Shown here: positions 4,534 through 20,619 of the stretch, piece after piece
Numbering within the stretch: the stretch's first letter is position 1
Layout: every line of letters starts with the position of its first letter
Origin: Micrococcales bacterium 31B
GTDB lineage: Bacteria; Actinomycetota; Actinomycetes; Actinomycetales; Dermabacteraceae
Length of the DNA stretch: 24,000 bases
Direction: 5' to 3'
Assembly: GCA_022803075.1 (NCBI GenBank)
Contig: JAFFTF010000004.1
Span: forward strand, 164,852 to 188,851
Translations under genes and position numbers: made by a program
Notes under the pieces: model-generated
The model's input: only the letters and a program-made list of their open reading frames with translations
Database searches by the model: none
Told to the model about the DNA's origin: nothing

Positions 4534-5231
4534 CCGCGCGAACGCCCACGCGCGTCACCCTGCGCAACTTCGTCGACGACCCCCGCGAGGCCAGCGAACT
4601 GCGAGCCGCCGCCATAAGTTGCGCGCGGGCGCTTGCGGGCGGCGGTCGAGTGTGGGGGTGGTCGCGCAGCCCCGTTCGCCTCGGTGAACCGCTGCTCACC
4701 CTCCGGCTACCGGACGCCCCGTGGCCCGCGCTCGCCCTGGCCCGCGAGACGCTCGCCCCCGGCGACGTGCTCGTGATGCTGGCCCCGGGGGACGACGCGC
4801 TGGCCGCGAACCTGGCCCTGCGCTGCCAGGCGTGGGGCGTGCGGGTCGCGTGGCTCGGGGAGGGCGTACGCGTCGGGAGCGCGCACCAGGTCCTCTCCGG
4901 CGACGACCCGCAGCGACTCGTCGACTCCGTGCTGGAGCGCTACCGGCAATGCTGCGAAAATGCCGAAACCCTCGCGCTCGCCATCGCGGAGAAACCCGAA
5001 ACGGACGTGTGCATCACGTGCAGCGACGAGGGCCGCCTCGCGGAGGTGCTCACTCTCGATTCGGGGCCGCTCGGCCAGGCGCACGTGCGCACGGAGGCGT
5101 CGCTCTCCGAGCCCGTCGACCTCATGCTGACGCCCGAGGCGAGGGTCTTCGACCTGGTCCTCGTGCACGCGGGCCTCGCGATCACGCAGGTTGCCGCCCC
5201 ACCCCTCACCCACCACCAGGAGTCCGAATGA
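4530..5231 (+). CDS. Two-domain hyp accessory protein: degenerate SIS (GmhA-like) N-domain fused to a HypC/HupF-like C-domain
   Basis: ATGA overlaps at both ends (4530-4533 and 5228-5231). The C-terminal 60 aa resemble HypC (CITCSDEGRLAEVL ... DLVLVHAGLAI), but the Cys is internal, within CxxC. The N-domain layout resembles a SIS fold (ALAGGGRVWGW ... GDVLVMLAPGDDALAANLALRCQAWGVRVAWLGEG), but the S-x-S-G type phosphosugar motif is absent. Confidence 0.65.
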   Translation: MTARTPTRVTLRNFVDDPREASELRAAAISCARALAGGGRVWGWSRSPVRLGEPLLTLRLPDAPWPALALARETLAPGDVLVMLAPGDDALAANLALRCQAWGVRVAWLGEGVRVGSAHQVLSGDDPQRLVDSVLERYRQCCENAETLALAIAEKPETDVCITCSDEGRLAEVLTLDSGPLGQAHVRTEASLSEPVDLMLTPEARVFDLVLVHAGLAITQVAAPPLTHHQESE

Positions 5232-6340: not shown

Positions 6341-6377
6341 AAACACCACGAACAAAAACGCGAGATAGGAGGCCACC

Positions 6378-6650
6378 ATGTGCCTGGGGATTCCCGGTGA
6401 GGTAGTAGAGATCGTCGATGCGGCGGAGCATTTGGCGAAGATTGACGTGAGCGGCGTGCAGCGCACCATCAGCGTGCGCCTGCTGGCCGACGATAACGTG
6501 CAGGCGGGCGACTGGGTGCTCGTTCACGTGGGGTTTGCCATGTCAAAGATTGATGCGACGGAGGCGGCCCTCACGCTCGAGCAAATTAAGCACATGGGCC
6601 AGGAGTACACGGACGAGCTGGAATCCTTTAAATCCAGCGTGATTCTTTGA
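6378..6650 (+). CDS. hypC: Hydrogenase maturation chaperone HypC (copy 2)
   Basis: MCLGIPGEVVEI ... GDWVLVHVGFAM. Strong SD taggagg lies about 6 nt upstream. The gene sits in the lower-GC segment together with hypD. Confidence 0.9.
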   Translation: MCLGIPGEVVEIVDAAEHLAKIDVSGVQRTISVRLLADDNVQAGDWVLVHVGFAMSKIDATEAALTLEQIKHMGQEYTDELESFKSSVIL

Positions 6651-6659
6651 GAGGCCGAG

Positions 6660-7784
6660 ATGAAATACGTTGACGAATTTCGCGACCCCGCCGCGGCGCG
6701 CGCGCTCGTGAAGGCGATTCACGACATCGTGGGGGAGCGGCATTACAAGTTCATGGAGGTGTGCGGCGGCCACACGCACACCATTTACCGCCACGGCATT
6801 GAACACTTGCTGCCCGAGAACGTCGAGTTGATTCACGGCCCGGGCTGCCCCGTGTGCGTGATTCCGATGGGCCGCAACGACGATGCCGTGTGGCTCGCCA
6901 ATCAGCCGAACGTCATTTTTACGACGTTCGGAGACATGATGCGCGTGCCCGGCACGAACGGTTCGCTGCTGGAGGCAAAGGCCAAGGGCTCCGACGTGCG
7001 GTTCGTGTATTCTCCGCTGGATGCGCTGAAAATCGCGGTCGACAATCCCACTCGCGAGGTGGTGTTTTTTGCGGTGGGCTTTGAAACGACGGCGCCCTCT
7101 ACTGCGGTAACGCTGGTGCGGGCGCGCGACCTCGGGGTAAAGAACTTTTCTATCTTTTGCAATCACGTCACCATCGAGCCGCCGCTGCGGGCGATCTTGG
7201 ATTCGGACGATCTCATTCTCGACGGGTTCATCGGGCCGGGGCACGTCTCCACCGTGGTGGGCACCTCCATCTACGACTTTATTCCCGCCGAATACAAGAT
7301 TCCCCTCGTCGTGACGGGCTTTGAGCCGCTCGACATTCTGCAGTCCATTTACATGCTGTTGCAGCAGTACAACGAGAGTCGCTGCACGGTTGAAAACCAA
7401 TATTCTCGGGTGGTGCGCCCCGAGGGTAATGTGCAGGCGCTCGCGCTCATGGAGCGCACGTTTACGCGCAGGCCCACGTTCGAGTGGCGCGGCCTCGGGC
7501 ATATTCCGGAGTCGGCCCTCGGCATTAGCGAAGAGTTCGCCGACCTGGATGCCGAACGCCGCTTCAACATGCCGGGGGTGCGGGTCGAGGACAACAAACT
7601 GTGCGAGTGTGGGAGCGTTCTGAAGGGCGTCATCAAGCCGTGGGAATGCAAGGTGTTTGGCACGGCGTGTACGCCCGAAACGCCCATCGGCACGTGCATG
7701 GTGTCGCCCGAAGGAGCCTGCGCGGCCTACTACAACTTCGGCCGCCTGCATCGCTCGACCGCGCAGTTGGTGGGTCAGGGGTAA
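6660..7784 (+). CDS. hypD: Hydrogenase maturation Fe-S protein HypD
   Basis: MKYVDEFRD...; CGGHTH; GPGCPVCV; FAVGFETT; C-terminal Cys cluster (CECGSVLKG ... CKVFGTACTPETPIGTCMVSPEGACAAYY). Confidence 0.95.
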   Translation: MKYVDEFRDPAAARALVKAIHDIVGERHYKFMEVCGGHTHTIYRHGIEHLLPENVELIHGPGCPVCVIPMGRNDDAVWLANQPNVIFTTFGDMMRVPGTNGSLLEAKAKGSDVRFVYSPLDALKIAVDNPTREVVFFAVGFETTAPSTAVTLVRARDLGVKNFSIFCNHVTIEPPLRAILDSDDLILDGFIGPGHVSTVVGTSIYDFIPAEYKIPLVVTGFEPLDILQSIYMLLQQYNESRCTVENQYSRVVRPEGNVQALALMERTFTRRPTFEWRGLGHIPESALGISEEFADLDAERRFNMPGVRVEDNKLCECGSVLKGVIKPWECKVFGTACTPETPIGTCMVSPEGACAAYYNFGRLHRSTAQLVGQG

Positions 7785-7797
7785 CGGAGGGCATGCC

Positions 7798-8550
7798 GTG
7801 ACCGCGATCACCCCGGGCGAACGGCTGTTTGCGCGGTGTGCCCACGCTCCCAACTCGCGCGGGTACTGCGGCCCTCGCACGACCGAGTTGGAGGCCGTCG
7901 CGCTCGGAGGCACGGGCGACGTGCTCGCAGCAGCGCGTCGCTTCTCGGGTGTCTGGGTGTACCTCGACCTCGCGGCGCAGCAACTGGGCCGCGATGACCC
8001 GCTCGCCCTCGACCTCGTGCAGGCCTATTGGTTGGGGACGCCCCCGCCCCCGGGATTCGCGCGCCCCGCGTTCGCGCGTGACCTGGTGCAGCGCATCGCG
8101 AACCAGGCGGGCTCTTATTGGAAGTACCTGACCCCCGAGCTCGAGGCCGAGGTGGTGCCCACCCACGGGTTTCACGTGTTCGGCGTGTACCCGTGGAGTC
8201 GACTGCTGCACCGGGGCGCCCCCGAACCGCTCATGGTGCTGGAATCCTGCCGTCTCACGCCCGCGCGGGTACTCGCGGTGTCGGGTGCTGGGCCGGGGGA
8301 TCGCCTGCTGGTCGCGGCGCGCCCGCTCGAATGCGTCGACGGTGAACTGCGGCTCCGAGCGGAGCGGGAGCGCTGGGTCGAGTACACGCTCGGCGGCGGC
8401 ACCTTCTTCGACGCGCCGCCGCGCGTGGGCGACTGGGTGGCGCTGCACTGGGATTTCGCGTGCACCGCGCTGACCGCGGCCCAGGCAGCCGCCCTGGAGG
8501 CCGACACGGTAGAGCAGGTGCGGTGCGTGAACCTGCGGGCCGAGGCGTAG
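7798..8550 (+). CDS. Conserved-looking hypothetical protein closing the hyp operon (Cys motif CAHAPNSRGYCGP)
   Basis: 250-aa ORF starting at GTG 7798, 6 nt after SD ggaggg (7786-7791) and 13 nt after the hypD stop. High-GC3 coding pattern. I can name no domain with confidence. Confidence 0.65.
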   Translation: MTAITPGERLFARCAHAPNSRGYCGPRTTELEAVALGGTGDVLAAARRFSGVWVYLDLAAQQLGRDDPLALDLVQAYWLGTPPPPGFARPAFARDLVQRIANQAGSYWKYLTPELEAEVVPTHGFHVFGVYPWSRLLHRGAPEPLMVLESCRLTPARVLAVSGAGPGDRLLVAARPLECVDGELRLRAERERWVEYTLGGGTFFDAPPRVGDWVALHWDFACTALTAAQAAALEADTVEQVRCVNLRAEA

Positions 8551-8626
8551 CGCCACACAACAACGCGGCCGACCCGAGGCCGGGCCGACCGCGCGTCCGC
8601 AAGCACCTCTCGGCGCCTCAACCGAA

Positions 8627-10717
8627 TTAGCAGCCCTTGCGGACCACCTGCACCACCGAGGGGCGCGGCCCACTGACCTGGCCGGGGGCGGGCGAACTCT
8701 TCACCACGTCGGGCCAGTACGAGGCCGGGGCGTCGAACTCGCCGTCTTCACCGGGGTGCTGCACCGCGACGAAGACCGAGCCGTCGCGGTCGTGGATGAC
8801 CGGACCGCACGTCTCGGCGCCCGCGGGCACCGCGAGGAACTGCTCAATCGTGCCGCGCTTGTCACCCTCGAGGTACACGCGGTAGAGGCCATCGTTGTAC
8901 CCGATGGTGCCGGGCTGGCCGTCGGTCGAGATCCACAGGTGGCCCTCGGAGTCGAACGCGAGGTTGTCGGGGCACGAGAGCGGCGCGACGGGAATCTCGA
9001 CGCCGCCGAGCACCACCTTCGCGTCCTTCGGCGTTCCCGCGAGCAGCAGCAGGGTCCACGTGAACTGCAGCGGGTCGGCCGTCTCGGTGATTTCGATGAT
9101 CTGACCGGTCTTGTTGTTCGCGCGCGGGTTGGCTGCGTCCACCTGCTCGGCCGTGCGCGACGTGTTGTTGGTGCACGCGGCGTACACGCGGCCCGTGATC
9201 GGGTGAATGTCGACGTCCTCGGGGCGGTCCATCTTGGTGGCACCAGCCTGATCGGCCGCGAGACGCGTAAACACGCAGATCTGCTCGACGCTCATGCCCT
9301 CGATCATCGATTCGCCGCCGACCATGAGGGGCAGCCACTCGCCCGTGGGCGCGCCGTCAGCGCCCGTCTCGGCGTTGAAGCGCGCTACGTACAGGTCGCC
9401 CGCGCTCAGCAGGGTCTTGTTGAACTCGCGGTCGCCCTCGCGGTACTTATCGGCCGAGACGAACCGGTAAATGTACTCGAAGCGCTCGTCGTCACCCATA
9501 TACGCCACGGCGTGGCCCTCGGCGTTGATGTGTACGTTGGCGCCCTCGTGCTTGAAGCGGCCCAGGGCCGTGTGCTTGACGGGAGTCGAGGTGGGGTCGT
9601 GCGGGTCGATCTCGATGACGTAGCCGAACCGGTTGGGCTCGTTTTCGCCGCCGGTCAGCGTCGCGTCAAAGCGCGGGTCGACCTTTTCGTAGCCGTAGCC
9701 CGCGCTGTCGGGTGCCAGGCCGTAGCGGGCGTTTTCGGGGGTCTCGGGGGCGTTGAAGTAGCCGTGAAAGTTCTCTTCGCCCGAGAGCACCGTGCCCCAG
9801 GGGGTGGTGCCGCCCGAGCAGTTTGCGAACGTGCCGTAGGCGATGGTGCCGGTCGGGTCGGCCGCCGTCTTCACGTGCTCCGAGCCCGCGCCGGGACCGT
9901 CGAGCACGAACTTCGTGGTGGCGGTGATGCGGCGGTTGTGGGGGCCGTCAACGACCGCGGTCCACGGCTTGGTGTGCTTCTTGCGCGCCAGGTCAACGAT
10001 GCTGAAGCCGACGGCCTGCATCGAGACGCGCAGGTTTTCGAGTTCAGCCTCGCCCGTCGCGCCGGGCGGATACATGAGGCCATCGTTGGTGTATTCGTGG
10101 TTGCAGGTGAGCAGGGCGCGCGTGGCACCGTGCCTGGCGTGGCCATCGAGCTCAATGATGTCGAGGTAGTCGTTGTTGTAGCCGAACCGCTTGGCCTGCA
10201 GCGCGGCGGTCTGCTGCGTGATGTCGAAGGCGGGCACGCCCGAGAACAGGGGGTCGCCCCAGCGCAAAATGACGTGCGACTCGAAGCCAGCGGGCACCGT
10301 CATCGAGTCGACGTCACGGGCCACGGGGGCGATGGCGTCGAACTCGAAGTCGGCGACGCGGGTACGACCCTTGCCCTTGCCGGGGTTGCTCTTGCCGGGG
10401 TTGCCCCGACCCTTGCCGTTATTGCCGTCCTTGGCGGCTGCGGCGAGGGGGTTGGCGAGCGAGAACGCTCCGCCCGCGAGGAACGCGAGGGCACCGGCAC
10501 CCTTCAGCAGGTTGCGGCGGGTCAGGTCGGAGACGACCGATTCGAAGGTGCCGTTGCCGCTCACGTTGGGGGCGGGCTTCGAGCACTGGTCGGCGCACTT
10601 GAGGTGGCACGTGACGGCGCTGCGCCGGCCGTGGGTCAGGCCGAGCATTGGGAGAAACCGGCGGCCCTGGGGGGCGGGCTGCTGGGCAGGCTGGGGGGAG
10701 GGGTGGGAGCATGACAT
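8627..10717 (-). CDS. phoX: PhoX-family (DUF839) secreted alkaline phosphatase with a Tat signal
   Basis: Twin-arginine motif TRRNLLKGAGALAFLAGGAF. PhoX-like core NCSGGTTPWGTVLSGEENF and beta-propeller-type text throughout. Start ATG 10717 has AAGAGG 7 nt upstream; the internal ATG 10648 has no SD. Confidence 0.85.
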   Translation of the reverse strand: MSCSHPSPQPAQQPAPQGRRFLPMLGLTHGRRSAVTCHLKCADQCSKPAPNVSGNGTFESVVSDLTRRNLLKGAGALAFLAGGAFSLANPLAAAAKDGNNGKGRGNPGKSNPGKGKGRTRVADFEFDAIAPVARDVDSMTVPAGFESHVILRWGDPLFSGVPAFDITQQTAALQAKRFGYNNDYLDIIELDGHARHGATRALLTCNHEYTNDGLMYPPGATGEAELENLRVSMQAVGFSIVDLARKKHTKPWTAVVDGPHNRRITATTKFVLDGPGAGSEHVKTAADPTGTIAYGTFANCSGGTTPWGTVLSGEENFHGYFNAPETPENARYGLAPDSAGYGYEKVDPRFDATLTGGENEPNRFGYVIEIDPHDPTSTPVKHTALGRFKHEGANVHINAEGHAVAYMGDDERFEYIYRFVSADKYREGDREFNKTLLSAGDLYVARFNAETGADGAPTGEWLPLMVGGESMIEGMSVEQICVFTRLAADQAGATKMDRPEDVDIHPITGRVYAACTNNTSRTAEQVDAANPRANNKTGQIIEITETADPLQFTWTLLLLAGTPKDAKVVLGGVEIPVAPLSCPDNLAFDSEGHLWISTDGQPGTIGYNDGLYRVYLEGDKRGTIEQFLAVPAGAETCGPVIHDRDGSVFVAVQHPGEDGEFDAPASYWPDVVKSSPAPGQVSGPRPSVVQVVRKGC

Positions 10718-10802
10718 GGTGTTGCCTCTTAACGTGGTGGTAGATCAACCCGGGCAGCCTATAAGGGGTGATCTACGCGGTTGAGACCCTTGTCTTAATT
10801 TT

Positions 10803-10832
10803 GTGACCGCTTGAGGTGAACGCCAAGTAACC
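10803..10832 (-). promoter_or_regulatory. Candidate PhoP-type direct repeats (PHO-box-like) upstream of phoX
   Basis: The minus strand reads GGTTACttggc GTTCACCtcaagc GGTCAC. The first two hexamers are 11 nt apart and the third is 13 nt further on. They lie 86-115 nt upstream of the phoX start. GTTCACC matches the core of Streptomyces PHO boxes. Confidence 0.25.
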
Positions 10833-10912
10833 ACGTAGATGTCTTGGGTAACGAGATGTGGGGGCGGGGCGCGGGGTATCGGACGCTCCGGGGGCAGGGC
10901 CGTTCGGGCAGC

Positions 10913-10946
10913 AAAAACCCGCCTGCCTCGGCACGAGGCGGGCGGG
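10913..10946 (-). terminator. Rho-independent terminator of crgA
   Basis: The minus strand reads CCCGCCCGCCTCG-tgc-CGAGGCAGGCGGG-TTTTT: 12 of 13 bp paired, a 3-nt loop, then a T5 tract. It begins 30 nt after the crgA stop. Confidence 0.75.
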
Positions 10947-10975
10947 TTCGTCGTAAGCGCGAGCGCTGGCGGGGG

Positions 10976-11242
10976 TTACTTCCAGTTCAGGAGCATGCCG
11001 AAGCCCACGAGCATGACGCCGCCGCCGACCGCGAGGTTCCAGTTGCCGATGTTCAGCGGGTACTGCGCGTAACCGCTCGCGCTGAGCACGTAGGTGGCCA
11101 CGAGATAGGCGAGGCCGAGCACCATCAGGGTGACCATGAGGGGCGCGTACCACCGGGGGTTCGTCGTCGAAGCGGGGCGCGGCCGCGAGGCACTCGTTCG
11201 CCGAGTGTCCTTGGCGGAGCGGGCTTCTTTCGATTCAGACAC
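10976..11242 (-). CDS. crgA: Cell division membrane protein CrgA
   Basis: 88 aa. Basic N-terminus, then NPRWYAPLMVTLMVLGLAYLV (TM1) and IGNWNLAVGGGVMLVGFGMLLNWK (TM2), the typical CrgA pattern. GTG start. Conserved neighbourhood with sortase and trpG. Confidence 0.85.
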   Translation of the reverse strand: MSESKEARSAKDTRRTSASRPRPASTTNPRWYAPLMVTLMVLGLAYLVATYVLSASGYAQYPLNIGNWNLAVGGGVMLVGFGMLLNWK

Positions 11243-11581
11243 GATAGATACTCACCTTGCTTGTTGGTTCGCCACGCGGGGAAGCGGGCGGGCGTGGAAT
11301 CTGAGATGCGGCGCGGGCGCCCATCGCAGCACTTCGCGGCGCTCCCACGCGCGACATTTGGACCCAATTCTACGATATGAAGTTGTGACACTGCAGCATA
11401 TGCTCGCTCAGCAGGGCGCTTGTGCCCCATTGCCGCCACGTATTCAGGGAGCATCCAGGCTGTTTTCTAAAAGTGCTCCTGATGCCGACTGCGCAAATTG
11501 GCGGTACCGTTGAAGTACTCATTGTGGCTGCGCGAGATCCGGCGCGCCACCTGTACCAATGGTTTTGTCGAGCGAGGGCAC

Positions 11582-12379
11582 ATGTCAGATGCTGCAGTAC
11601 TCAACGAATCGCGTAACTCGCCGCCATCACGCGGTGCGGTGGCGATCATCAGCGGCGTGTTGGGCGAGATTCTCATTACCCTCGGCGTGTTGTGCGGCCT
11701 CTTTGCCGTGTGGCAAATTTTCTGGACCGACGTGGTCGCAGGCGACCTACAACAGAAAACAATCAACTCCGTAGTGCGGGAGTGGGACGCCAGCGCGGCA
11801 GAGCCCCTACCGACCACCGCGGCACCCCGCGGCGAGTACGGCGACCCGCCGGTGCTCGATCGCGACTCGCTCAACCCGTCCCAGGTGTACGGCATCATGT
11901 GGATCCCCCGGTTCGGCGAAAACGGCATCCCCCTCGCAGAGGGCACCGACACCAAGACCGTGCTTGACGAGGGCGAAGCCGGCCACTACCCCGACACCGC
12001 CATGCCCGGTGAGGTCGGCAACTTCGCGACCGCCGCGCACCGCTCGAGCTACGCCAAGCCCTATCACCTCATCGCGGACCTGCAAGAGGGCGACCCCATC
12101 GTCGTCGAAACCAAAGACGCCTATTACGTCTACAAGTACACGAGCTACGAGATCGTGAGCCCCGCAGACACCGCCGTGCTGCTACCCGTGCCACGCCAAC
12201 CTGAGGCCACCGCAACCGACCGGCTGCTCACCCTCACCGCCTGCCACCCCATGTACTCACTGCGCGAGCGGTACATTGCCTACGGCAAGTTCGACTACTG
12301 GGTGCCGCGTAGCGCGGGCATCCCCGCCGAGATCCTCACGACCACCAACGTTGCCGCTGCGGCCCAAGGAGCCAACTAA
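11582..12379 (+). CDS. srtE: Class E sortase (membrane-anchored transpeptidase)
   Basis: N-terminal TM segment (VAIISGVLGEILITLGVLCGLFAVW). Catalytic TLTACHP motif. Downstream Arg (LRERYIAYG). I preferred ATG 11582 with GAGGG 5 nt upstream; the ORF is open from 11498. Confidence 0.85.
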   Translation: MSDAAVLNESRNSPPSRGAVAIISGVLGEILITLGVLCGLFAVWQIFWTDVVAGDLQQKTINSVVREWDASAAEPLPTTAAPRGEYGDPPVLDRDSLNPSQVYGIMWIPRFGENGIPLAEGTDTKTVLDEGEAGHYPDTAMPGEVGNFATAAHRSSYAKPYHLIADLQEGDPIVVETKDAYYVYKYTSYEIVSPADTAVLLPVPRQPEATATDRLLTLTACHPMYSLRERYIAYGKFDYWVPRSAGIPAEILTTTNVAAAAQGAN

Positions 12380-12540
12380 TGTATGCTGCCCTATGGCGCG
12401 TCCTGCCGGGACACTGGTTCCTCAAAGTGCTGATCCTGTTGGCCCTGGCCTTCGGCGTCGTCGTGCTCTGCTTTAACTACGTATTCCCCGCCATCGCGCC
12501 GTTTGTGCCGTTCAACAACGAGGCGACGGTCGGCAGCTGA
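12379..12540 (+). CDS. Small (53 aa) single-pass membrane protein, below the ORF-track cutoff
   Basis: My own translation: MYAALWRVLPGHWFLKVLILLALAFGVVVLCFNYVFPAIAPFVPFNNEATVGS. The ATG overlaps the sortase stop (TAATG). GC3-rich codons. It ends 11 nt before trpG. Confidence 0.6.
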   Translation: MYAALWRVLPGHWFLKVLILLALAFGVVVLCFNYVFPAIAPFVPFNNEATVGS

Positions 12541-12551
12541 TTCGAGGCCCC

Positions 12552-13229
12552 ATGAACACCGCCGCACCCGGCGCCACCGCGCAGGCTCAACCTCGCATTC
12601 TCGTGGTCGACAACTACGACTCGTTCGTCTACACCATCGTCGGCTACCTGCAGCAACTCGGTGCGCACTGCGACGTGGTGCGTAACGATGAGGTCCCCCG
12701 TGACGGCGCGGGCGTGCCCGATCTCGCAGGCTACGATGGCGTGCTCTTGTCGCCCGGCCCCGGAAACCCGGCCGAAGCCGGAGCGTCACTCGACGTGATT
12801 CGGGCGTGCGCGGCGTCCGCCACCCCCATGCTGGGTGTGTGCCTCGGCCACCAGGCGCTCGGCGAGGCGTTCGGCGCCACCGTTACCCATGCCGAACACC
12901 TCATGCACGGCAAGACGAGCCTTGTGCAGCACGCGAACGCGGGTGTCTTTGCGGGCCTGAACGCGCCCTTCACCGCGACGCGCTATCACTCGCTCGCGGT
13001 CGTGCGCTCCACAGTGCCCGCCGAACTGGTGATCACCGCGGAGACCGCGGACGGCGTCGTGATGGGTCTCCAGCACGCGACGCTGCCGCTGCACGGCGTG
13101 CAGTTTCACCCCGAATCGGTGAAGACCGAGGGCGGGCATCGCCTGCTCGCGAACTGGCTCGAGGGCATCGACGGCGTTTCGGCCGCCGAGCGCTCGCGCG
13201 GCCTCGCCCCGCTCGTCAGCGCCACCTAG
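12552..13229 (+). CDS. trpG: Glutamine amidotransferase component II of anthranilate / aminodeoxychorismate synthase (TrpG/PabA)
   Basis: ILVVDNYDSFVYTIV; catalytic GVCLGHQALG; RYHSL; GVQFHPESV. Sequence alone cannot distinguish TrpG from PabA. Confidence 0.9.
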   Translation: MNTAAPGATAQAQPRILVVDNYDSFVYTIVGYLQQLGAHCDVVRNDEVPRDGAGVPDLAGYDGVLLSPGPGNPAEAGASLDVIRACAASATPMLGVCLGHQALGEAFGATVTHAEHLMHGKTSLVQHANAGVFAGLNAPFTATRYHSLAVVRSTVPAELVITAETADGVVMGLQHATLPLHGVQFHPESVKTEGGHRLLANWLEGIDGVSAAERSRGLAPLVSAT

Positions 13230-13239
13230 CCGGCGCTAC

Positions 13240-15795
13240 CTACACCGACTCCTGCTTCGACCCGCGCCGCAGGCGAGCCCACAGCTTCTGGGCGACCCGA
13301 GCCCGAGGCCTCAGCGCCCGCGTCTCGCGGTCGAGGGTGTGCACCACCTGGGCGAGCGGCACGTGTTTGGTCAGGGTCGTCACTGCCCCCACCACACCCG
13401 GGTCGCGATACCGGCGCTCGTTGAGCGCGTCTACGAGGGCGCCCCAATCGCTGTGCAACTCGTCGCCGAGCGTCAGGCCCCGTTCGCCGAGCGCGCGCGT
13501 GGCCGCCTGCAGCGTCTCGCTTGGGGCAGTGCCCGCCGGCCAGCCGAAACCACGGTCGGACGCCACGGCACCCACCTCGGCATAGGCCGCCTCCAGGGCT
13601 GCGCGGCTCGGCAGCGGGGTCGTCGCCGCGTCGCCCATGGCCGCGAAGTGTTGGCGCTGCTGCCAGGCGCGGCGCCCACGCGACCAGGCGTGCGGTAGGT
13701 GCAGCGCGCCGATGGCGAGCACGAGCAGTGCGAGGGCCGCCGCGGCAAGCCGCGCCGGAAGACTGAGACCCTCAAACCAACCCGTGACGCGCTCCATGAC
13801 GCTGGGCGTGGCTACCGCGTCCGCGCTCGCGGCGGTGCCCGGCGCCGGGGCGGCACCCTCGGCCGGGTCGGTGAGCGCCGACGAGGCCGAGGCGCTGGGC
13901 GTCGCGGACGAGGTCGAGTCGCTCGGCTCGGGGGTCGCCGAACTGGAGGTCTCGGAGGGGGTGGCGCTCGGCTCGGGGGTCGACCCGGGCGGCGGCCCGT
14001 TCAATTGGTCTTGCCAGGACGGCGACGAATATGAGCCCGTCGGGCCCGCGGGCGTCGGCTCGAACCGCACCCACTGCGGATTCTCCGTGGTGCCCATGTT
14101 GAGCTCGGGCCACGCGTGGGCGTTGTGATTCGTCACGACCACGTTGCCGTTGGCGTCGGGCTGCCCCAGGTAGCCCACGACGACTCGCGCCTCGATGCCC
14201 TCGTACTGCGCCATGAGCGCCATCACCGACGAGAACTGCTCGCAGTACCCCTCGCCCGACTGCAAGAAACCCGTGATCGGGTCGGTGTCCTCGGGCGAGG
14301 TGTAGTTAATGTTGTAGCGAAACCCGCGAAAGTAGTTTTGCAGCGCGAGCGCCTTGTCGAGCTTGGTTTCCGCGCCCGAGGTCACCTCGTCGCTCACCGT
14401 GCGCAGCAGCGTGGGCACGCTGCTCGTGAGCGCGGACGATGAGGTCTGCATGCTCCACGCGCTTGGGTCAGCCACCTCGGCGCGGCTCGTCACCTCGTAC
14501 GACAGGCCGCGATTCGACGCGCTTTGAAACTTCAAAACCTGGCCAAACGCGTTGTAGCCCCATTCGCCGGAACCCTCGAGCATTTGCGCGGATTCGACCC
14601 CTGCGGGCACCGGCAGGTAGCGATTCTGCGCCCCCACGTCGATGAAGGTGTAGGTCACGTTTTGGCCGGTGTAGGGCGCGGGGGGTTGCGCGGTCAGGCC
14701 GTCGCTGGCCTGGCTCAGGTCAGCGTCGAATTCGTCACCCACCTGCCGCCACGTGTAATTTTGGTAGAGGCTCAGCACTCCCACGCGCACGTAGTTATCG
14801 GCGTTCGCGGTGTCGGTGGCGAAGGTGAAAACCTCGCGCTCCACGGGGTCGCGCAACTGGCTCGACACGTTGACCGAATTGTCGAGCATCGAGCCGCCCG
14901 CCACCTGCCCGTACTGGGTGACATCGAACGCAAACGACGGCGACCCGATGGTCTCCGTGCGCGAACTGAGCGCCCCACCCGCCACGGCCACGCCGATCGC
15001 GACCACGCCGACGAGGAGGGTGCTCACGGTACCGAGGGCCCGGGCGTCCGCCCTAAATCGGCGGGTCGAGCCGGACGCGCGGGGCACCCGTTGGTGCCGC
15101 GTGGGACGCGTGGCGACGTCCACGAGAAACATGAGGCCGCAGGCCAGGGTCGCGACGGCAAAAATGGTGGGGTCGGGATTGAGGGGGGTGAACAGTCCGC
15201 TCGCGATGACAACCCCGAGGATGGGCAGCAGCGAGAGCGCCACCGCCCGCAGGCTCACGTACGTGGCGTCGATCCAGGCGGTCAGCACGGCCACGCCCAG
15301 CGTGGCGAGCGCGAGGGTGTTGCCGAGAATCACGAGGGGAACGCGCCCCGTAGCGATGTCGAGGCGCACCGGTTCGATGAACTCGGCCACGGCACTGGGG
15401 TTCCAGTTGGCCGGGAGCACTACGTTCGGGGTGAGCGGTGCGACGCCCGGCAGCACCATCGCGATGACGAACAGTTGCACGGGCACCGTGAGCAGCACGC
15501 GCAGCCACGACCGGGCAAAGGGGGCAGCGAGGGCCAACGCGAGGCGCACGAGGGCGCCCGCCGCGAGCACGAGCGCAATCATGCCGTGGGCCGAGTTCAG
15601 CCAGGTGACCTCGATGATGGGGTGCAGCGAGTACACCACGGCCCACGCGGCGAAAGCGGCGATCGCGGTGCGCGCGAGATCGCGGCGGATGGCACGCCAG
15701 CGAGCACCGGGCGCCTGCGGGGCCCCCTGCGGCGACTTCAGGGTCGCGGCGGATGGCACATGTGCGGCGTTCACAAGAGTTGGGTTCGTGGTCAT
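13240..15795 (-). CDS. Multi-pass membrane transglutaminase-like protein (TgpA-type)
   Basis: About 6 N-terminal TM helices. Transglutaminase core GEGYCEQFSSVMALM ... NAHAWPE. S/T/P/E-rich linker (PEPSATPSETSSSATPEPSDSTSSATPSASASS), one more TM segment and a C-terminal cytoplasmic tail. I chose ATG 15795 (ATGA overlap with the DUF58 stop) over 15861. Confidence 0.85.
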   Translation of the reverse strand: MTTNPTLVNAAHVPSAATLKSPQGAPQAPGARWRAIRRDLARTAIAAFAAWAVVYSLHPIIEVTWLNSAHGMIALVLAAGALVRLALALAAPFARSWLRVLLTVPVQLFVIAMVLPGVAPLTPNVVLPANWNPSAVAEFIEPVRLDIATGRVPLVILGNTLALATLGVAVLTAWIDATYVSLRAVALSLLPILGVVIASGLFTPLNPDPTIFAVATLACGLMFLVDVATRPTRHQRVPRASGSTRRFRADARALGTVSTLLVGVVAIGVAVAGGALSSRTETIGSPSFAFDVTQYGQVAGGSMLDNSVNVSSQLRDPVEREVFTFATDTANADNYVRVGVLSLYQNYTWRQVGDEFDADLSQASDGLTAQPPAPYTGQNVTYTFIDVGAQNRYLPVPAGVESAQMLEGSGEWGYNAFGQVLKFQSASNRGLSYEVTSRAEVADPSAWSMQTSSSALTSSVPTLLRTVSDEVTSGAETKLDKALALQNYFRGFRYNINYTSPEDTDPITGFLQSGEGYCEQFSSVMALMAQYEGIEARVVVGYLGQPDANGNVVVTNHNAHAWPELNMGTTENPQWVRFEPTPAGPTGSYSSPSWQDQLNGPPPGSTPEPSATPSETSSSATPEPSDSTSSATPSASASSALTDPAEGAAPAPGTAASADAVATPSVMERVTGWFEGLSLPARLAAAALALLVLAIGALHLPHAWSRGRRAWQQRQHFAAMGDAATTPLPSRAALEAAYAEVGAVASDRGFGWPAGTAPSETLQAATRALGERGLTLGDELHSDWGALVDALNERRYRDPGVVGAVTTLTKHVPLAQVVHTLDRETRALRPRARVAQKLWARLRRGSKQESV

Positions 15796-16973
15796 AGCGT
15801 TTCCAGCACCGACTCCCAGGCCTGCGTGAACTGGGCGTGACGAGGGCCCTCCGGATGCCACGGCACCGCCATGGGGCGCGGATGGGCAGGGTTGCCGCCG
15901 CGCGTGGAGACCTCGCCGCTGCCGACCGTGAAGACGAGGCTTGGGCGCGAGTACGTGTCGTATTCGTCGTGATGCTCGATGAGTTCATGGGTGCGATCGG
16001 CGCGGTGCGGGTCATCGAGCCTGGCCAGCGCGAGGTTACGCTGGGCCACGTGGATGGCTTGGGCGTTCAACCGGGCCCGACCCGGCTGACCCGAGGCTGC
16101 GGCCGCCAGCGAGGGGGCCAAGGCGTTGTTCTGACCGTCGCAGATGCGCACCACCATGCCGTGCTGGGCGAGGTTGACGGCAACGCTCAGGCCGGTCTCG
16201 ACGATCGCGCTGACGTGAGGGCTCTCGGCGCCGCCCATGGCCTCCAGCGCGGGGGTAATCACGACGGTCGCATGCAGTCGCTCGACGGGCTCGACATCGC
16301 GCACCATGAGTTTGCCCCGGCGGGCGCTCGCTCCCCAGTGCACGCGCCGCAGTTCGTCACCCACGGCGTACTCGCGCGGGATCGGGCTGAGTTCGGTTTC
16401 GGCGTCGTGCTGTGCCAGTCTCGACAGTACCGGCAGCGACACCAGGCGCGGCAGCACGAGCACCTCGCGCACCCCTAGCAGGCGGGGAGTCACCGACCGG
16501 CGCCAGAGCCCAAACGGGTCGGTTACGCGGCAACGCGGCGTCGCGAATTCGTAGCGCCCCAGGCGGGCTGAGGGTTCGCCGAGCGCGCCCGACTCGGTTT
16601 CGAGCACTGCGGCGCGCAGGCAACGGCCGACTGTCACGAGCCGGGTGCGCACGGGGTCCCCTTGCAGGGTCTCGGGCACGCCTCCCTCGACCTGCTCGAC
16701 GCGCGCCGGGCCTGCGGCCTGGCTCGGGCCCGGCAGCGCGTTGTCGTAGGCGCGCACCCAGACGGTGCGCGAGAGGTGCAGGGGTCGCCATGCGAACTGA
16801 CATAGTAGCCACGTCAACACGACGAAGAGTGCCAGGGTGACCGCGAGCTGCGCCGCGATGATCACGCCGAAGTTGCTAAACACGTACCAGAGCAGGGCCA
16901 CGAAGGCGAGGACGAAGCCGCCTCGCCACGTGAGAAACGGTAGCCCCAGGAGGGCGGGGCGGGGGTTGGCCAT
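15792..16973 (-). CDS. DUF58 (vWA-like) family protein
   Basis: Two N-terminal TM helices plus the family motif GDELRRVHWGASARRGKLMVRDVE. The start lies 1 nt after the MoxR stop. Confidence 0.85.
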   Translation of the reverse strand: MANPRPALLGLPFLTWRGGFVLAFVALLWYVFSNFGVIIAAQLAVTLALFVVLTWLLCQFAWRPLHLSRTVWVRAYDNALPGPSQAAGPARVEQVEGGVPETLQGDPVRTRLVTVGRCLRAAVLETESGALGEPSARLGRYEFATPRCRVTDPFGLWRRSVTPRLLGVREVLVLPRLVSLPVLSRLAQHDAETELSPIPREYAVGDELRRVHWGASARRGKLMVRDVEPVERLHATVVITPALEAMGGAESPHVSAIVETGLSVAVNLAQHGMVVRICDGQNNALAPSLAAAASGQPGRARLNAQAIHVAQRNLALARLDDPHRADRTHELIEHHDEYDTYSRPSLVFTVGSGEVSTRGGNPAHPRPMAVPWHPEGPRHAQFTQAWESVLETL

Positions 16974-16974
16974 G

Positions 16975-17994
16975 TTAACGTGCGCCGACGGCGAGGGGCA
17001 CCTGCGCTGACAGTTCGCGCAAGATCTGGTCGGAATCCTGGCCGCTCGCGAACGCGCGGGGCGCGAGCTGGACCCGGTGCGACCACAGGGGCAGCAGCAG
17101 GGCTTGGAGGTCGGTGGGCAGCACGTGATCGCGGCCCGAAATTGCGGCGTACGCCTTGGCCGCGCGCACGAGGTGAACGGTCGCCCGGGGCGAGACGCCG
17201 AGCCGCAGCAGTGGATGCTGCCGCGTGCGATTCGCGAGGTGAACCGTGTATTCGAGCAGTTCGGGCGAGATGAAGATGCTGCGCACCTGATTCATCATCG
17301 AGGCCAGTTCGCCCGCCGAGGTGATCGTGTTGATCGTGTGCAGCGCAGCGTGCGCGGCCTTGAAGTCGTTGCTGCGGCCGGATTGCACGGCGAGCATCTT
17401 GATCTCGGAGGTGGGGTCGGGGTAGCCCAGCGAAATGCGCGCCATGAAGCGGTCGCGCTGAGCCTCGGGCAGGGCGTACGTGCCCTCCATTTCGATGGGG
17501 TTCGATGTGGCCATCACCATGAAGGGGCGAGGCAGCTCGTGCGTTTCTGAGTCGACGGTGACGTGGCTTTCTTCCATCGCTTCGAGCAGTGCCGACTGCG
17601 TCTTGGGGCTCGAACGGTTGATCTCGTCGGCGAGCAGCAAGTTGGTGAAGATGGTGCCGCGACGAAACTCAAACTCGGTACTGCCCGGGCGCAGGATGGA
17701 GACTCCCGTAATATCACTGGGCAGCAAGTCTGGGGTGAATTGAATGCGCCGTTGATCGACGCCAAGCGCACGCCCCATCGAGGTCGCCAGCATGGTCTTG
17801 CCGACCCCGGGCACGTCTTCGATGAGCAGGTGGCCGCCCGCAAAGAGAACGGTCAGCGCGATACGAATGTGTTGTCCCTTGCCCTCAATCACTTTTGACA
17901 CTTCGTCATACAGCGCGCCCGCGCAGGCCGAAATGAGGGCGACATTCGCTTCTGGATGTTGGGGCACGGCAACCTCGTTCGTTTCGGCGGGCAC
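16975..17994 (-). CDS. MoxR-family AAA+ ATPase
   Basis: Walker A LIEDVPGVGKT. Walker B / sensor LLLADEINRSSPKTQSALLEAMEE. Text is MoxR-like end to end. The start is uncertain: GTG 17994 has no SD, while GTG 17967 has GAGG 5 nt upstream. Confidence 0.9.
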   Translation of the reverse strand: MPAETNEVAVPQHPEANVALISACAGALYDEVSKVIEGKGQHIRIALTVLFAGGHLLIEDVPGVGKTMLATSMGRALGVDQRRIQFTPDLLPSDITGVSILRPGSTEFEFRRGTIFTNLLLADEINRSSPKTQSALLEAMEESHVTVDSETHELPRPFMVMATSNPIEMEGTYALPEAQRDRFMARISLGYPDPTSEIKMLAVQSGRSNDFKAAHAALHTINTITSAGELASMMNQVRSIFISPELLEYTVHLANRTRQHPLLRLGVSPRATVHLVRAAKAYAAISGRDHVLPTDLQALLLPLWSHRVQLAPRAFASGQDSDQILRELSAQVPLAVGAR

Positions 17995-18167
17995 GGCAAG
18001 CGTGTCGGTCGGGTCAGCGCAGGTATGCGCCTCCTAAACCTCCACGCTAGCAGCCTGGCCGAGCCTCCTGCTGAGAGTTACTTGAGGGCTCCCTTCATGC
18101 AAAAGTTCTGCGGCCCGATCTGGCGGCTATGTTATGTGGACCCTTTTAGTGTGAACCTGGTTTGGGG

Positions 18168-20051
18168 CTAGAACAACTCGTAGTAATTGGGGCGTAGCGG
18201 ATTGTTCTCCCACCCCAGGTACGCGGCCGCACGCAGAATGCGCGCCATGGGCGACGAGGGCACGGCGCCGGGGGTGGGTGCCGCAAGGCCGGGCACCACC
18301 GCGCGCACCACGTGACAACCGCAGGCCCGGGCGTCGTCTGTCGTGAGGTCGACGATGATGTATTCCCACCCATTGCGTTGCAACGAGGCGCGCGCGTCGA
18401 GGCCCGGCGAGGCGGGATACGTGGCGAGCGTGGTGTCGGAGACGCGCTCGCGCATGGCCGCGCTCTGCGCCTCGGTGACGGCGCGAGCCCGCTGTTCGCT
18501 TTGCAGGTGATGGTGCAGCAGGGCCTCGGTGGCGGCAAGTTCGCACGCGGTTTCGTAGTCGCGATGAGATGCGCAGCCGTAGCCGACGTAGTTGTCTTTC
18601 TCGACTATCGCAAGCACGGTCGGAAGGTCGTAGGTGTTGCGCAGGTCAAGGAGGGTGAGGTCAACGGAACACGGGGCACCCGACTCGGTCACCCAGGCGT
18701 CCTGAATGGACGCGGGGGTGGGCAGTTGGTCGGCCACGCCGCCGCGGGTCCACCAGACTGCGAGGGCGTCTTGGCAGATGACATTGCGCAGGGCCATCTC
18801 GGCGGCATCATCGTGATGCAGGCTGCTCCCGAGGCCCGAGAGTTCGATGTGGGGGTGAACGCAGCCGCGCTCAAAGGTGCGGAACACGGTGTCACGGGGC
18901 ACCCACACGGGAAGCCCCTCGTAGTCGCCCTTGATCCACCAGATGGGTGTCTCGGGGTCTCGCTGCGCCATGGCCAGCGTGCGGGTCAAGACGAAGTCGA
19001 AACGGCTGAGGTCAACGACGTTTTCGCCGGCTTCGAGCAGGGCGCGCCGGGGGGCGTGCCAAATTTCGCCCTGAGTGTGGATACTCGAGCAGTAGCGGCC
19101 CAGTGCGCGCAGTGCGCTCTCGGCGGTGGGCGACGTCGGGTCGAGCCCTTGGCGAAGCTCGCCGATCTTGGCGACCATGCCGGGCGTGGATTCGGCGGTG
19201 AGCCCGGGCACTTCGAACGGGGCTATCAGGGTGAACTCGGTGTACGCGAAGTGGCGTGGGTAGCCTGCTGGGCCGAGCTGAGTGGAGACCCCCGTAATGA
19301 TGCCCGTATAGGGGTCGATGAGCGGCAACGCGGATTCGGCGGCTGAGACATTGTGCGCGAGGGCGCGGGGGTCGTCCCGATGGTCGTCCAACGGATCGGT
19401 TTCTCGGGGTGAGGTGGGCGGAGGCAACACCGGGTGGGGGGTTTGAGTCTCATCGTGCCACGCGAGGAGGTTGGCGAGGCGTCCGAAACAGTGCGGATTG
19501 CGGTTGAGTTCGGTAGCGGTGGCCTGCACGGCGCGCAGCAGGGCGGCTTCGCAGGCCTCTGGGGTGAGCGGCTGACCGTAGCGGATTTGCAATCGGGGCA
19601 CGACGACTTCGAATTGGTGCCAATCTTCGTTGCGGCCGGGGCCGAAGGCGAGCGACCAGACTCCGACCGAGGTGGTCCACAGCAGGAGGCGGGGGCCGGT
19701 GATGGCGTCGAGGGCGGCGAAGTGGGGGGCGGGACTCTCGCGCGTGATGAGCACATGCACATCAACCAGATCGGGGTCGCGCGGAGTGGTGTCGGTCGCC
19801 CACTGCGCGATGGGCAGGGCGTGCGCGCGGCCGGAGGTGCTCGGGGAAGTTCTGGAGGGGTCGCCGACGAGAGGCTGCGGCTCGGGGTGGACGTCGAGGG
19901 TTTCGGTGAATACGGCGAAGAGGTCGGGCGGGGCGTCGACGGTGACGCGGACCTGGGAGAGCCCCCCGACGGAAGTGTCTAATGCGGTGTTTTCGCCCAC
20001 CACAAAGGCGTGCTTGAAGGGCACGACATTTGAGGTGTTGGCGGAGGTCAT
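18168..20051 (-). CDS. YcaO-superfamily protein with an N-terminal extension of about 230 aa and apparently substituted ATP/Mg-binding residues
   Basis: YcaO-like landmarks occur in the canonical order. These are LIDPYTGIITGV; TAESALRALGRYCSS (expected SAL.EA.ERY); PIWWIKGDYEGLPVWVPRDTVF; GLGSSLHHDDAAEMALRNVICQDALAVWW (expected E..ERDA); and IIVDLTTDDARACGCHVVRAVVPGL. The assignment was made by eye only. Confidence 0.65.
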   Translation of the reverse strand: MTSANTSNVVPFKHAFVVGENTALDTSVGGLSQVRVTVDAPPDLFAVFTETLDVHPEPQPLVGDPSRTSPSTSGRAHALPIAQWATDTTPRDPDLVDVHVLITRESPAPHFAALDAITGPRLLLWTTSVGVWSLAFGPGRNEDWHQFEVVVPRLQIRYGQPLTPEACEAALLRAVQATATELNRNPHCFGRLANLLAWHDETQTPHPVLPPPTSPRETDPLDDHRDDPRALAHNVSAAESALPLIDPYTGIITGVSTQLGPAGYPRHFAYTEFTLIAPFEVPGLTAESTPGMVAKIGELRQGLDPTSPTAESALRALGRYCSSIHTQGEIWHAPRRALLEAGENVVDLSRFDFVLTRTLAMAQRDPETPIWWIKGDYEGLPVWVPRDTVFRTFERGCVHPHIELSGLGSSLHHDDAAEMALRNVICQDALAVWWTRGGVADQLPTPASIQDAWVTESGAPCSVDLTLLDLRNTYDLPTVLAIVEKDNYVGYGCASHRDYETACELAATEALLHHHLQSEQRARAVTEAQSAAMRERVSDTTLATYPASPGLDARASLQRNGWEYIIVDLTTDDARACGCHVVRAVVPGLAAPTPGAVPSSPMARILRAAAYLGWENNPLRPNYYELF

Positions 20052-20307
20052 AGTTCGAGCGTGACACTATTCGATGGGGCGGTCAACAGCAGATTCTCGG
20101 TGGCCGCGGGGCGTATCGACGCAGCGTGAAATGAGGGGCCCACTGCCCTAGCTGTGGGTGATGCGGGTCAGGGGCGGGGCCTGGGGCGGCGGCGTGGTTT
20201 ATGGTGTGTAGTCTCGGCTGCCGGGTGACCGGGCGAGCTGCGTTTGTGCAGTTAGTGGGCGGGTGCGAGATCGCCTCGGGGTGTCGCCTGACTTCTGTCA
20301 ACCCTGC

Positions 20308-20360
20308 TGCATTGATCACTCAATGCAACCATGCGTGGCACAAAGTAGCATTGCAATGCT
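20308..20360. promoter_or_regulatory. Two palindromes sharing the half-site GCATTG in the AT-rich intergenic region (candidate operators)
   Basis: TGCATTGA-tcac-TCAATGCA at 20308-20327 (8-bp arms) and AGCATTG|CAATGCT at 20347-20360 (perfect 14-mer). Each alone is near chance expectation for 24 kb. The shared half-site and 20-bp proximity are the only support. Confidence 0.2.
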
Positions 20361-20619
20361 TTGTTACAGATGTATACAAATTTTGGTGATGCCCAACACG
20401 CGGCGCTTCTGTTTTTCTGCGGTAGTGGTGTATTGAACCCGTTTGATCGCGATTGCGTTCGGTTCGGGTTCGTTGCGTCCGCGCGCCCGCGCCGCAGAAT
20501 GCCCCAACAAAAACTGCAGCGCGGGCACGGCTCGGACAAGATAGAGGCCAAATGCGGTTTGCATTCGCACCGAAATGGGGGGAATGTAAGATCAGAGAGA
20601 TTGCAGAGCGGAGTCGTGC

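Follow-up and report, generated by a model that had tools for sequence, protein, structure and literature searches.

The four co-directional genes described here from Micrococcales bacterium 31B very probably represent two unrelated units lying side by side, an ordinary MoxR-DUF58-TgpA triad and an orphan, degenerate YcaO-like gene, with their adjacency being accidental and no joint system being formed. They lie within a 24,000 nt stretch of contig JAFFTF010000004.1 (the window), for which an earlier note, made from the sequence alone, had raised the idea that the YcaO-like protein functions together with the triad. On the reading preferred here the triad would be self-contained, its MoxR AAA+ ATPase being cytoplasmic, its DUF58 protein anchored in the membrane and its TgpA protein polytopic. 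The YcaO-like protein (627 aa) would be a copy of a fused E1-like/YcaO heterocyclase, full in length yet degenerate and more eroded than the degenerate clade to which it is closest; it may be either an orphan relic or a stand-alone pseudoenzyme, and neither a partner YcaO nor an exporter or precursor is apparent beside its gene within 24 kb. Its position in front of MoxR would then be a lineage-specific accident of gene order.

Open reading frames and Pfam assignments bear out the arrangement given in the earlier note, with four co-directional, minus-strand genes of the families named there (Table 1), all of which have host-like coding signatures and GC3 values of 0.80–0.87. The MoxR, DUF58 and TgpA genes are translationally coupled, as had also been stated: MoxR and DUF58 are separated by a single nucleotide (TAA-C-ATG), and the stop codon of DUF58 overlaps the TgpA start as ATGA at 15797–15794. 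Because of this overlap the TgpA start is most likely the ATG at 15797, the longest ORF (13240–15861; 873 aa) reaching up to a GTG at 15861. A gap of 174 nt had been given between the YcaO-like and MoxR genes; the gap is real and its measured length is 173 nt, the stop codon of the YcaO-like gene ending at 18168 and the earliest possible MoxR start being a GTG at 17994. Any longer MoxR ORF is blocked by an in-frame TGA.

Table 1. Genes and intergenic regions of the minus-strand run and its divergent flank (positions are those of the window).
Feature	Position	Strand	Basis
YcaO-like gene, 627 aa	18168..20051	-	Pfam YcaO, TIGR03604, AF2 model, codon signature
MoxR-family AAA+ ATPase, 339 aa (triad gene 1)	16975..17994	-	AAA_3 and AAA_lid_2
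DUF58 protein, 393 aa (triad gene 2)	15792..16973	-	Pfam DUF58; triad position
TgpA-type membrane transglutaminase-like protein (triad gene 3)	13240..15797	-	TgpA_N and Transglut_core
Intergenic gap, YcaO-like stop to MoxR start, 173 nt	17995..18167	-	sequence
Divergent intergenic region, YcaO-like gene to GAF-GGDEF-EAL gene, 568 nt	20052..20619	.	sequence

The 339-aa protein matched Pfam AAA_3 (6e-61) and AAA_lid_2 (1e-22), identifying it as MoxR; its translation shows Walker A (GVGKT) and Walker B (LLADE) motifs, and its best relatives are actinobacterial MoxR proteins of 53–58% identity. The match of the 393-aa protein to Pfam DUF58 is weak (26.0 bits; cutoff 23.4), and a word-indexed homologue search with it returned only itself. 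It occupies the DUF58 slot of the conserved triad, its tblastn matches being the middle triad gene in six other loci (L012, L013 and L015–L018), and it has hydrophobic segments within residues 7–63. The 873-aa protein carries TgpA_N (1e-26) and Transglut_core (3.5e-22) domains, at least seven N-terminal hydrophobic segments and the Cys motif GYCEQF. MoxR is the first gene and TgpA the third in all six orthologous triads with flanking sequence, and the order (MoxR, DUF58, TgpA) and tight linkage of the window triad are those of an MRP-type MoxR operon.

The same MoxR-DUF58-transglutaminase trio has been described in the literature (PMC12067865; PMC8430577). The window triad shares its gene order and tight coupling with actinobacterial MoxR (MRP)-DUF58-transglutaminase/vWA operons, examples of which are the PFNA core of Bifidobacterium (pkb2-fn3-aaa-atp-duf58-tgm) and the mycobacterial moxR1 operon, but it has no FN3 or kinase gene and in this differs from the PFNA cluster. 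The RavA-ViaA system of E. coli likewise places a MoxR-family ATPase beside a vWA-related partner (PMC12067865), although RavA belongs to another MoxR subfamily (the window MoxR scored 26 bits against the NCBIfam RavA model, cutoff 681) and RavA-ViaA is without a transglutaminase component. By analogy with MoxR/vWA pairs such as RavA-ViaA, the MoxR ATPase presumably acts via its DUF58 (vWA-associated) partner on the envelope protein.

The protein encoded in front of the triad passed the gathering score of Pfam YcaO (PF02624; 57.6 bits, cutoff 25.7, residues 315–589), while its score of 93.4 bits against TIGR03604 (SagD) lay below the cutoff of that family (219.25). No TM segments were predicted in it. 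Its AF2 model has a pTM of 0.72, with pLDDT values of about 85–93 across most of residues 245–620. When the model was compared by Foldseek with LynD, MusD and TruD, E-values of 4e-22 to 1e-17 and TM scores of 0.50–0.60 were obtained over about 610–640 columns, and further matches were found to the YcaOs of M. jannaschii and M. kandleri, E. coli YcaO and McbD (all, LynD, MusD and TruD included, with E-values of 4e-22 to 9e-9). A phmmer search of PDB sequences with the single 627-aa sequence gave no match and a family profile was required; the resulting profile alignment places the YcaO-like family on TruD, LynD and MusD, covers both the E1-like and YcaO parts, and aligns EAIERY and ELVERD of TruD to 'avahYC' and 'hViahD' of the family. 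The 627-aa protein models as a full-length, degenerate homologue of the fused E1-like/YcaO heterocyclases of the LynD/TruD type, and the predicted fold is common to it and the fused cyanobactin-type enzymes (LynD, TruD/PatD and MusD) over its whole length. It is only 14–17% identical to these enzymes and, unlike them, lacks both the Mg/ATP acidic residues in motif 1 and motif 2 and a proline motif at the C-terminus. The N-terminal 95 residues of the model are of low confidence, and it is this part, low-confidence or unaligned, that corresponds to the leader-binding region of LynD. In contrast to the LynD, TruD and MusD systems, no precursor, protease or oxidase genes occur near the YcaO-like gene of the window.

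The residues of motifs 1 and 2 taken here to bind ATP and Mg are those indicated by the TruD alignment and by a review that is cited further below. Motif 1 reads LRALGRYC in the 627-aa protein against the canonical GEAVERYC, and motif 2 reads LRNVICQD against LEEVIERD, so that the acidic pairs are replaced by R/G and N/C, respectively, and the Arg of motif 2 by Q. The Glu of motif 3 is kept (ATEAL). At the C-terminus the sequence ends in NYYELF (...PNYYELF) and not in a PxPxx or proline-rich tail; canonical homologues have tails of the form P.P.. (e.g., PLPHA, PHPFP), and those of the degenerate clade end in PYPGW. A segment of about 50 aa that is conserved in the relatives is also absent. Among the 137 HMMER matches of at least 400 aa, E..ER[YHFLW] was present in 123 and E..[EQ]RD in 105, and just 11 were without both, most of them members of the PYPGW clade. 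Having lost the Mg/ATP-binding acidic residues in both motif 1 and motif 2, as well as its C-terminal proline motif, the 627-aa protein most likely cannot activate amide backbones, and the suggestion in the earlier note of a YcaO pseudoenzyme agrees with these features. The ORF is uninterrupted, its 627 codons containing neither a frameshift nor an internal stop, and has a GC3 of 0.82 in both halves; with such an intact reading frame and codon usage like that of the host, the gene is not obviously decaying and may retain some role. Horizontal transfer was considered and rejected, the composition and codon usage of the gene being indistinguishable from those of its neighbours (JS divergence 0.031).

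Continued YcaO activity of the protein, independent of the triad and relying on non-canonical residues or an unlinked partner, with the RiPP precursor or protein that it modifies encoded elsewhere, appears very unlikely. The well-predicted fold, the retained Glu of motif 3 and the intact ORF with its coding signature are consistent with such activity, as are two GCATTG..CAATGC palindromes in the divergent region (20348–20359 and 20309–20326), operator-like sites that point to regulation of one or other of the divergent genes. This pattern, which was picked post hoc, occurs twice in the divergent region and nowhere else in the window, where 0.01 occurrences were expected. Against activity stand the replaced acidic pairs, the Arg to Q change in motif 2, the missing proline-rich terminus and the deletion of the conserved segment. 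A review that cites Dunbar 2014 (PMC8120280) attributes the ATP-binding motifs to every YcaO protein, which also argues against it. The surroundings provide no apparent partners either: precursor-like small ORFs around the gene were checked and none was convincing, no second YcaO or ABC exporter gene, no E1/TfuA/Ocin-ThiF partner and no dehydrogenase gene was found in the 24-kb window, and the neighbours are instead genes for GAF-GGDEF-EAL, MoxR, DUF58, TgpA, GATase, sortase and PhoX proteins.

The relatives of the 627-aa protein are distant. A HMMER search that took in representatives of about 15 billion proteins gave a closest relative with an E-value of 7e-28 and 35% identity, and the 627-aa protein was the sole member of its 50%-identity cluster; a word-indexed search returned only itself and one match of 23% identity. 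The top HMMER matches (P0003–P0009) all belong to a degenerate clade with a PYPGW tail, of 24–35% identity, found in Microbacterium, Glycomyces, Salinibacterium, Pseudoclavibacter, Aeromicrobium and Kineosporiaceae, and no description of this clade was found in the literature searched. In an NJ tree the 627-aa protein is sister to the clade with a bootstrap of 93/200 (47%), the distances being saturated. Both have lost the acidic residues of motifs 1 and 2 and are of similar length (590–680 aa), but the PYPGW tail and the segment of about 50 aa are features of the clade that the 627-aa protein does not share.

A consistent gene neighbourhood surrounds the degenerate genes of these relatives. 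Wherever upstream flank was available (16 loci), the gene directly upstream of the degenerate one encodes a catalytic fused YcaO (251–255 bits against TIGR03604, cutoff 219), the two overlapping at stop and start in one case (L004), and the catalytic gene is itself preceded by a CydDC-like ABC exporter pair, with FecCD-type importer genes in the same block. A '406-aa' plus-strand ORF upstream of this cassette was rejected as a wrong-strand call, the real gene being a minus-strand FecCD permease. Because the gene pairing is fixed, proteins of the degenerate clade are probably the non-catalytic partner of the neighbouring catalytic YcaO. The YcaO-like gene of the window differs in that neither a catalytic YcaO gene nor genes for an ABC exporter pair or a FecCD/PBP importer adjoin it.

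The pairing with the triad does not recur outside the window. Eighteen loci of the nearest YcaO-like relatives were compared, 16 of which were informative (at least 1.2 kb of downstream flank), and in none of these was MoxR, DUF58 or TgpA found downstream; as a positive control, the same neighbour scan detected all three genes in L012, L013 and L015–L018. Conversely, none of the six orthologous triads has a YcaO gene upstream, the neighbours there being a divergent mraZ (twice), PNPOx, DUF2505, a resolvase and an unknown gene. Among the triads compared, a YcaO-like upstream neighbour is confined to the genome of the window, the triad of which, unlike two of its relatives, is not next to mraZ. 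The source lineage is isolated, with a best MoxR match of 58%, so that these counts describe distant relatives and not the lineage itself. No mention of YcaO together with MoxR was found in the literature searched. The neighbourhood analysis that the earlier note had proposed, once run, does not uphold a functional system of YcaO with MoxR, DUF58 and transglutaminase, since what accompanies the relatives is a catalytic YcaO together with ABC transporter genes, not the triad, and the caution given there, that the adjacency could be fortuitous, was sound.

Within the gap, consensus scans revealed no minus-strand terminator-like or sigma-70-like site, the RNA fold was no more stable than those of shuffled sequences (z = -0.79), and there was no Rfam match anywhere in the window, including the 173-nt gap and the 568-nt divergent region. 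As the genes are co-directional, the gap is 173 nt and no terminator is recognisable, read-through transcription from the YcaO-like gene into the triad is possible. It could be envisaged that the degenerate protein was co-opted in this lineage and, co-transcribed with MoxR, DUF58 and TgpA, serves them without catalysis of its own, as an adaptor or as a scaffold that presents substrates, and the shared strand and hairpin-free gap, together with a loss of catalytic motifs in an ORF that is nonetheless intact and of host codon usage, would fit a retained, non-enzymatic role of this kind. Such co-option is judged very unlikely, however, given that the pairing is seen in 0/16 informative loci and 0/6 triads and is not mentioned in the literature searched, and that the gap is long beside the 1-nt and overlapping junctions within the triad. 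In addition, MoxR heads the operon in 6/6 relatives and, because the upstream gene is divergent in 4/6 of them, the triad MoxR would be expected to have its own promoter.

More doubtful still is a detailed form of the same proposal, in which a dead fused-cyclodehydratase homologue that has lost its catalytic partner was co-opted as a cytoplasmic adaptor, co-transcribed with the triad, and delivers a peptide or protein client to MoxR and the transglutaminase; if true, a pseudoenzyme of the YcaO fold would operate together with a MoxR system, a combination of which no description is known. The least probable alternative is that the YcaO-like ORF was recently inactivated and is becoming a pseudogene without a functional product, leaving the triad alone functional: the gene has no partner genes, it has decayed further than the degenerate clade (the deletion of about 50 aa, the lost PYPGW tail and the low-confidence N-terminal 95 residues) and it stands alone in its cluster, but its 627 codons are free of frameshifts and internal stops and the GC3 of both halves is typical of maintained genes in the window.

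With two unrelated, adjacent units as the preferred explanation, the YcaO-MoxR pairing fails as a proposed new system and should not be carried forward. The 627-aa protein is of value as a clear case of a YcaO fold with degenerate ATP/Mg motifs 1 and 2, and one that is annotated by pipelines as a 'YcaO-like family protein' and might wrongly be taken for a RiPP enzyme by genome-mining tools. The better target for follow-up is not the window but the block found in its relatives, a conserved and apparently undescribed actinobacterial arrangement in which genes for a FecCD/PBP/ATPase importer and a CydDC-like exporter pair occur together with those for a catalytic fused YcaO and its degenerate partner.

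The earlier note on this DNA proposed that a 627-aa YcaO-like protein forms a functional system with the products of the adjacent MoxR, DUF58 and transglutaminase (TgpA) genes. This proposal is not supported: the pairing was seen in none of 16 informative loci of YcaO-like relatives, and a YcaO gene accompanies none of six related MoxR-DUF58-TgpA triads. What remains is a divergent and degenerate protein from a known superfamily, adjoining an ordinary, already known operon. The description of the locus itself holds, as ORF positions and Pfam matches confirm four co-directional minus-strand genes and their family assignments. The junctions are also as claimed, with TAA-C-ATG between MoxR and DUF58 (1-nt gap) and an ATGA overlap joining the DUF58 stop to the TgpA start, which gives the likely TgpA start in the table below. 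By contrast, 173 nt lie between the end of the YcaO-like gene and the first codon at which MoxR could begin, a longer MoxR ORF being blocked by an in-frame TGA. This gap has no Rfam match and its RNA fold is not more stable than shuffled sequences (z = -0.79), and simple consensus scans, which are weak for Actinobacteria, detected neither a minus-strand terminator-like hairpin nor a sigma-70-like promoter within it; the YcaO-like gene may thus be transcribed either with the triad or apart from it.

Features of the window, from left to right.
Feature	Position (nt)	Strand	Remarks
Rieske-NifU fusion protein	741-1730		Hydrogenase-maturation cluster (741-6340, left of window; gene starts unrefined)
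HypF	1709-4258		Same cluster
HypC-like domain	end of ORF 4185-5231		Same cluster
HypE-like AIR-synthase-type protein	within 4721-6340		Same cluster; domain match
ORFs of 456, 346 and 178 aa	6543-8673 and 10844-11380		No Pfam match
PhoX, sortase, class-I glutamine amidotransferase			Right of hydrogenase-maturation genes; amidotransferase convergent with TgpA
TgpA-type transglutaminase	longest ORF 13240-15861; likely start 15797	-	TgpA_N and Transglut_core
DUF58	15792-16973	-	Pfam DUF58, 26 bits, barely above cutoff
MoxR	16975-17994	-	AAA_3 (6e-61) and AAA_lid_2
YcaO-MoxR gap	17995-18167		
YcaO-like, 627 aa	18168-20051	-	Pfam YcaO, 57.6 bits, residues 315-589
Two palindromes	20309-20326 and 20348-20359		GCATTG/CAATGC half-sites
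GAF-GGDEF-EAL			Right of YcaO-like gene, divergent, across a 568-nt intergenic region

The triad forms a unit of its own, and the gene upstream of it varies among genomes. In all six contigs with enough flank (Brachybacterium, Nocardioidaceae, Georgenia, Nanopelagicales and two further assemblies), MoxR comes first, then DUF58, then TgpA, and the upstream neighbours are either divergent (mraZ of the dcw cluster twice, a resolvase and an unknown gene once each) or co-directional (PNPOx and DUF2505, once each). This agrees with published work, in which MoxR together with DUF58 and either a transglutaminase or a vWA protein is a known but poorly understood actinobacterial arrangement, occurring in the PFNA core of Bifidobacterium and in the moxR1 operon of mycobacteria (PMC12067865; PMC8430577). 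The window MoxR keeps its Walker A (GVGKT) and Walker B (LLADE) motifs, and its best relatives are only 53-58% identical (58% being the best among 5.8 billion clusters), confirming an isolated lineage. The source organism is phylogenetically isolated, and the DUF58 and YcaO-like proteins are essentially without word-level relatives. Hydrophobic segments occur at the N-terminus of the DUF58 protein, while TgpA has at least seven N-terminal ones and one more after its core, in which a GYCEQF Cys motif is followed by HAWPE (His). Within the same stretch (residues ~538-600 of TgpA, 873-aa numbering), 'FEPT', with Glu, stands at the position of the 'DPT' motif, where the catalytic Asp of the transglutaminase core is presumably to be expected.

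The 627-aa protein is nearly an orphan. A word-indexed search returned itself and one 23%-identical protein, and exhaustive HMMER against 1.8 billion cluster representatives gave 213 matches at E <= 1e-3, with only the protein itself below 1e-30 and the best relative, 35% identical, at 6.7e-28. Its score against the SagD-family model TIGR03604 is 93 bits (cutoff 219). Its family profile matches TruD, MusD and LynD across the E1-like and YcaO parts (E ~1e-21), and an AF2 model built from the family alignment (pTM 0.72; pLDDT ~85-93 in the C-terminal domain, with 95 low-confidence N-terminal residues) superimposes on these whole chains (E 4e-22 to 1.7e-17; TM 0.50-0.60 across ~610-640 columns). 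Together, profile and predicted fold argue that it is a full-length homologue of the fused heterocyclases. No TM segment is predicted.

Alignment with canonical YcaOs shows the acidic pairs of motifs 1 and 2 to be replaced: LRALGRYC stands for GEAVERYC and LRNVICQD for LEEVIERD, aligned with EAIERY and ELVERD of TruD. Dunbar and colleagues reportedly found that these glutamates ligate Mg/ATP. The C-terminal tail reads NYYELF in place of PxPxx, and a ~50-residue segment conserved in the closest relatives is absent. Among 137 homologues that are 400 aa or longer, E..ER[YHFLW] occurs in 123 and E..[EQ]RD in 105; both are missing in 11, most of which form a clade ending in 'PYPGW'. PMC8120280, citing Dunbar 2014, describes the ATP-binding motifs as present in all YcaO proteins. 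Judging from the motifs, catalysis has probably been lost. The motif 3 Glu is kept, but with both acidic pairs replaced it seems very unlikely that the protein is still active, in a non-canonical way, on an unlinked substrate.

The top HMMER matches are exactly this degenerate clade. Its alignment was scanned against one genome per species, giving 11 loci (three each in Glycomyces and Microbacterium, one each in Salinibacterium, Pseudoclavibacter, Aeromicrobium, Kineosporiaceae and Dermatophilaceae), and metagenomes added seven, for a total of 18. Of these, 16 have at least 1.2 kb downstream, sufficient to reveal a following MoxR gene. Searches of the 18 loci by tblastn with the window MoxR, DUF58 and TgpA gave no matches (E <= 1e-5 for genomes, <= 1e-6 for metagenomes), while the same queries readily found all three genes in control triad loci. 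The suggested neighbourhood analysis thus found no enrichment of the homologues beside the triad; their partners are a catalytic YcaO and ABC genes. A fused catalytic YcaO of 750-850 aa, with TIGR03604 scores of 251-255 bits (above cutoff) and a weak match to the TIGR03882 leader-binding domain, lies directly upstream in all 16 loci with upstream flank, and genes for a CydDC-like ABC exporter pair come before it. Further conserved genes, divergently oriented, encode a FecCD permease, a Peripla_BP_2 binding protein and an ABC ATPase. None of these genes occurs in the window, which also lacks RiPP genes (second YcaO, E1-like, Ocin-ThiF, TfuA, dehydrogenase or exporter), and no small ORF near the YcaO-like gene is convincing as a precursor. 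A lineage-specific co-option of the protein as a MoxR adaptor would fit the co-directional placement, but given these neighbourhoods it is very unlikely; consistent with the claim that no such pairing had been described, nothing in the literature searched mentions both proteins. In an NJ tree the 627-aa protein is sister to the degenerate clade. Because distances are saturated and the bootstrap reaches only 93/200, this makes its descent from that clade likely rather than certain, and another fused cyclodehydratase could possibly have degenerated independently.

Other features of the window were also observed. The two palindromes in the divergent region (AGCATTGCAATGCT; TGCATTGA-gtga-TCAATGCA) may be operators of one or both promoters; their pattern, picked after the sequence was read, occurs twice in the window, where 0.01 occurrences would be expected. 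The three ORFs without Pfam matches have atypical codon-position GC (GC3 0.62-0.73 vs 0.80-0.91 in neighbours) and the GC content around them is lower (0.63 at 6001-8000; window 0.60-0.75). They may be wrongly called frames, or else genes that are foreign or evolve fast. Plus-strand GC skew is strongly positive (+0.24) at 19001-20000, the 5' half of the YcaO-like gene, which fits a C-rich coding strand for its Pro/Thr/Ala-rich, low-confidence N-terminal region.

Despite the missing segment, a nascent pseudogene is the least likely reading, with GC3 at 0.80-0.87 in all four genes and codon usage matching neighbouring genes. We consider the following picture probable. On the model of MoxR/vWA pairs, RavA-ViaA among them, the MoxR ATPase would work through DUF58, with the membrane transglutaminase-like protein or the clients of that protein as its target; in relatives, the degenerate YcaO-like protein would serve the neighbouring catalytic YcaO as a non-catalytic partner; and in Micrococcales bacterium 31B it would be an orphan relic or stand-alone pseudoenzyme, unlinked to the triad.

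The block in the relatives, at 1937-12711 in locus L004, runs from a divergent metal-chelate-type importer through the CydDC-like pair and the catalytic fused E1-like/YcaO cyclodehydratase to the degenerate partner, with an overlap of stop and start between the last two genes in L004; equivalents are in L001-L003, L005-L007, L009-L011, L019, L021 and L025. It has no recognisable SagB-type dehydrogenase or precursor, and no matching description appeared in the literature searched for YcaO and metallophore. It suggests an undescribed YcaO product, possibly metal-binding, and this conserved block is the more promising lead.
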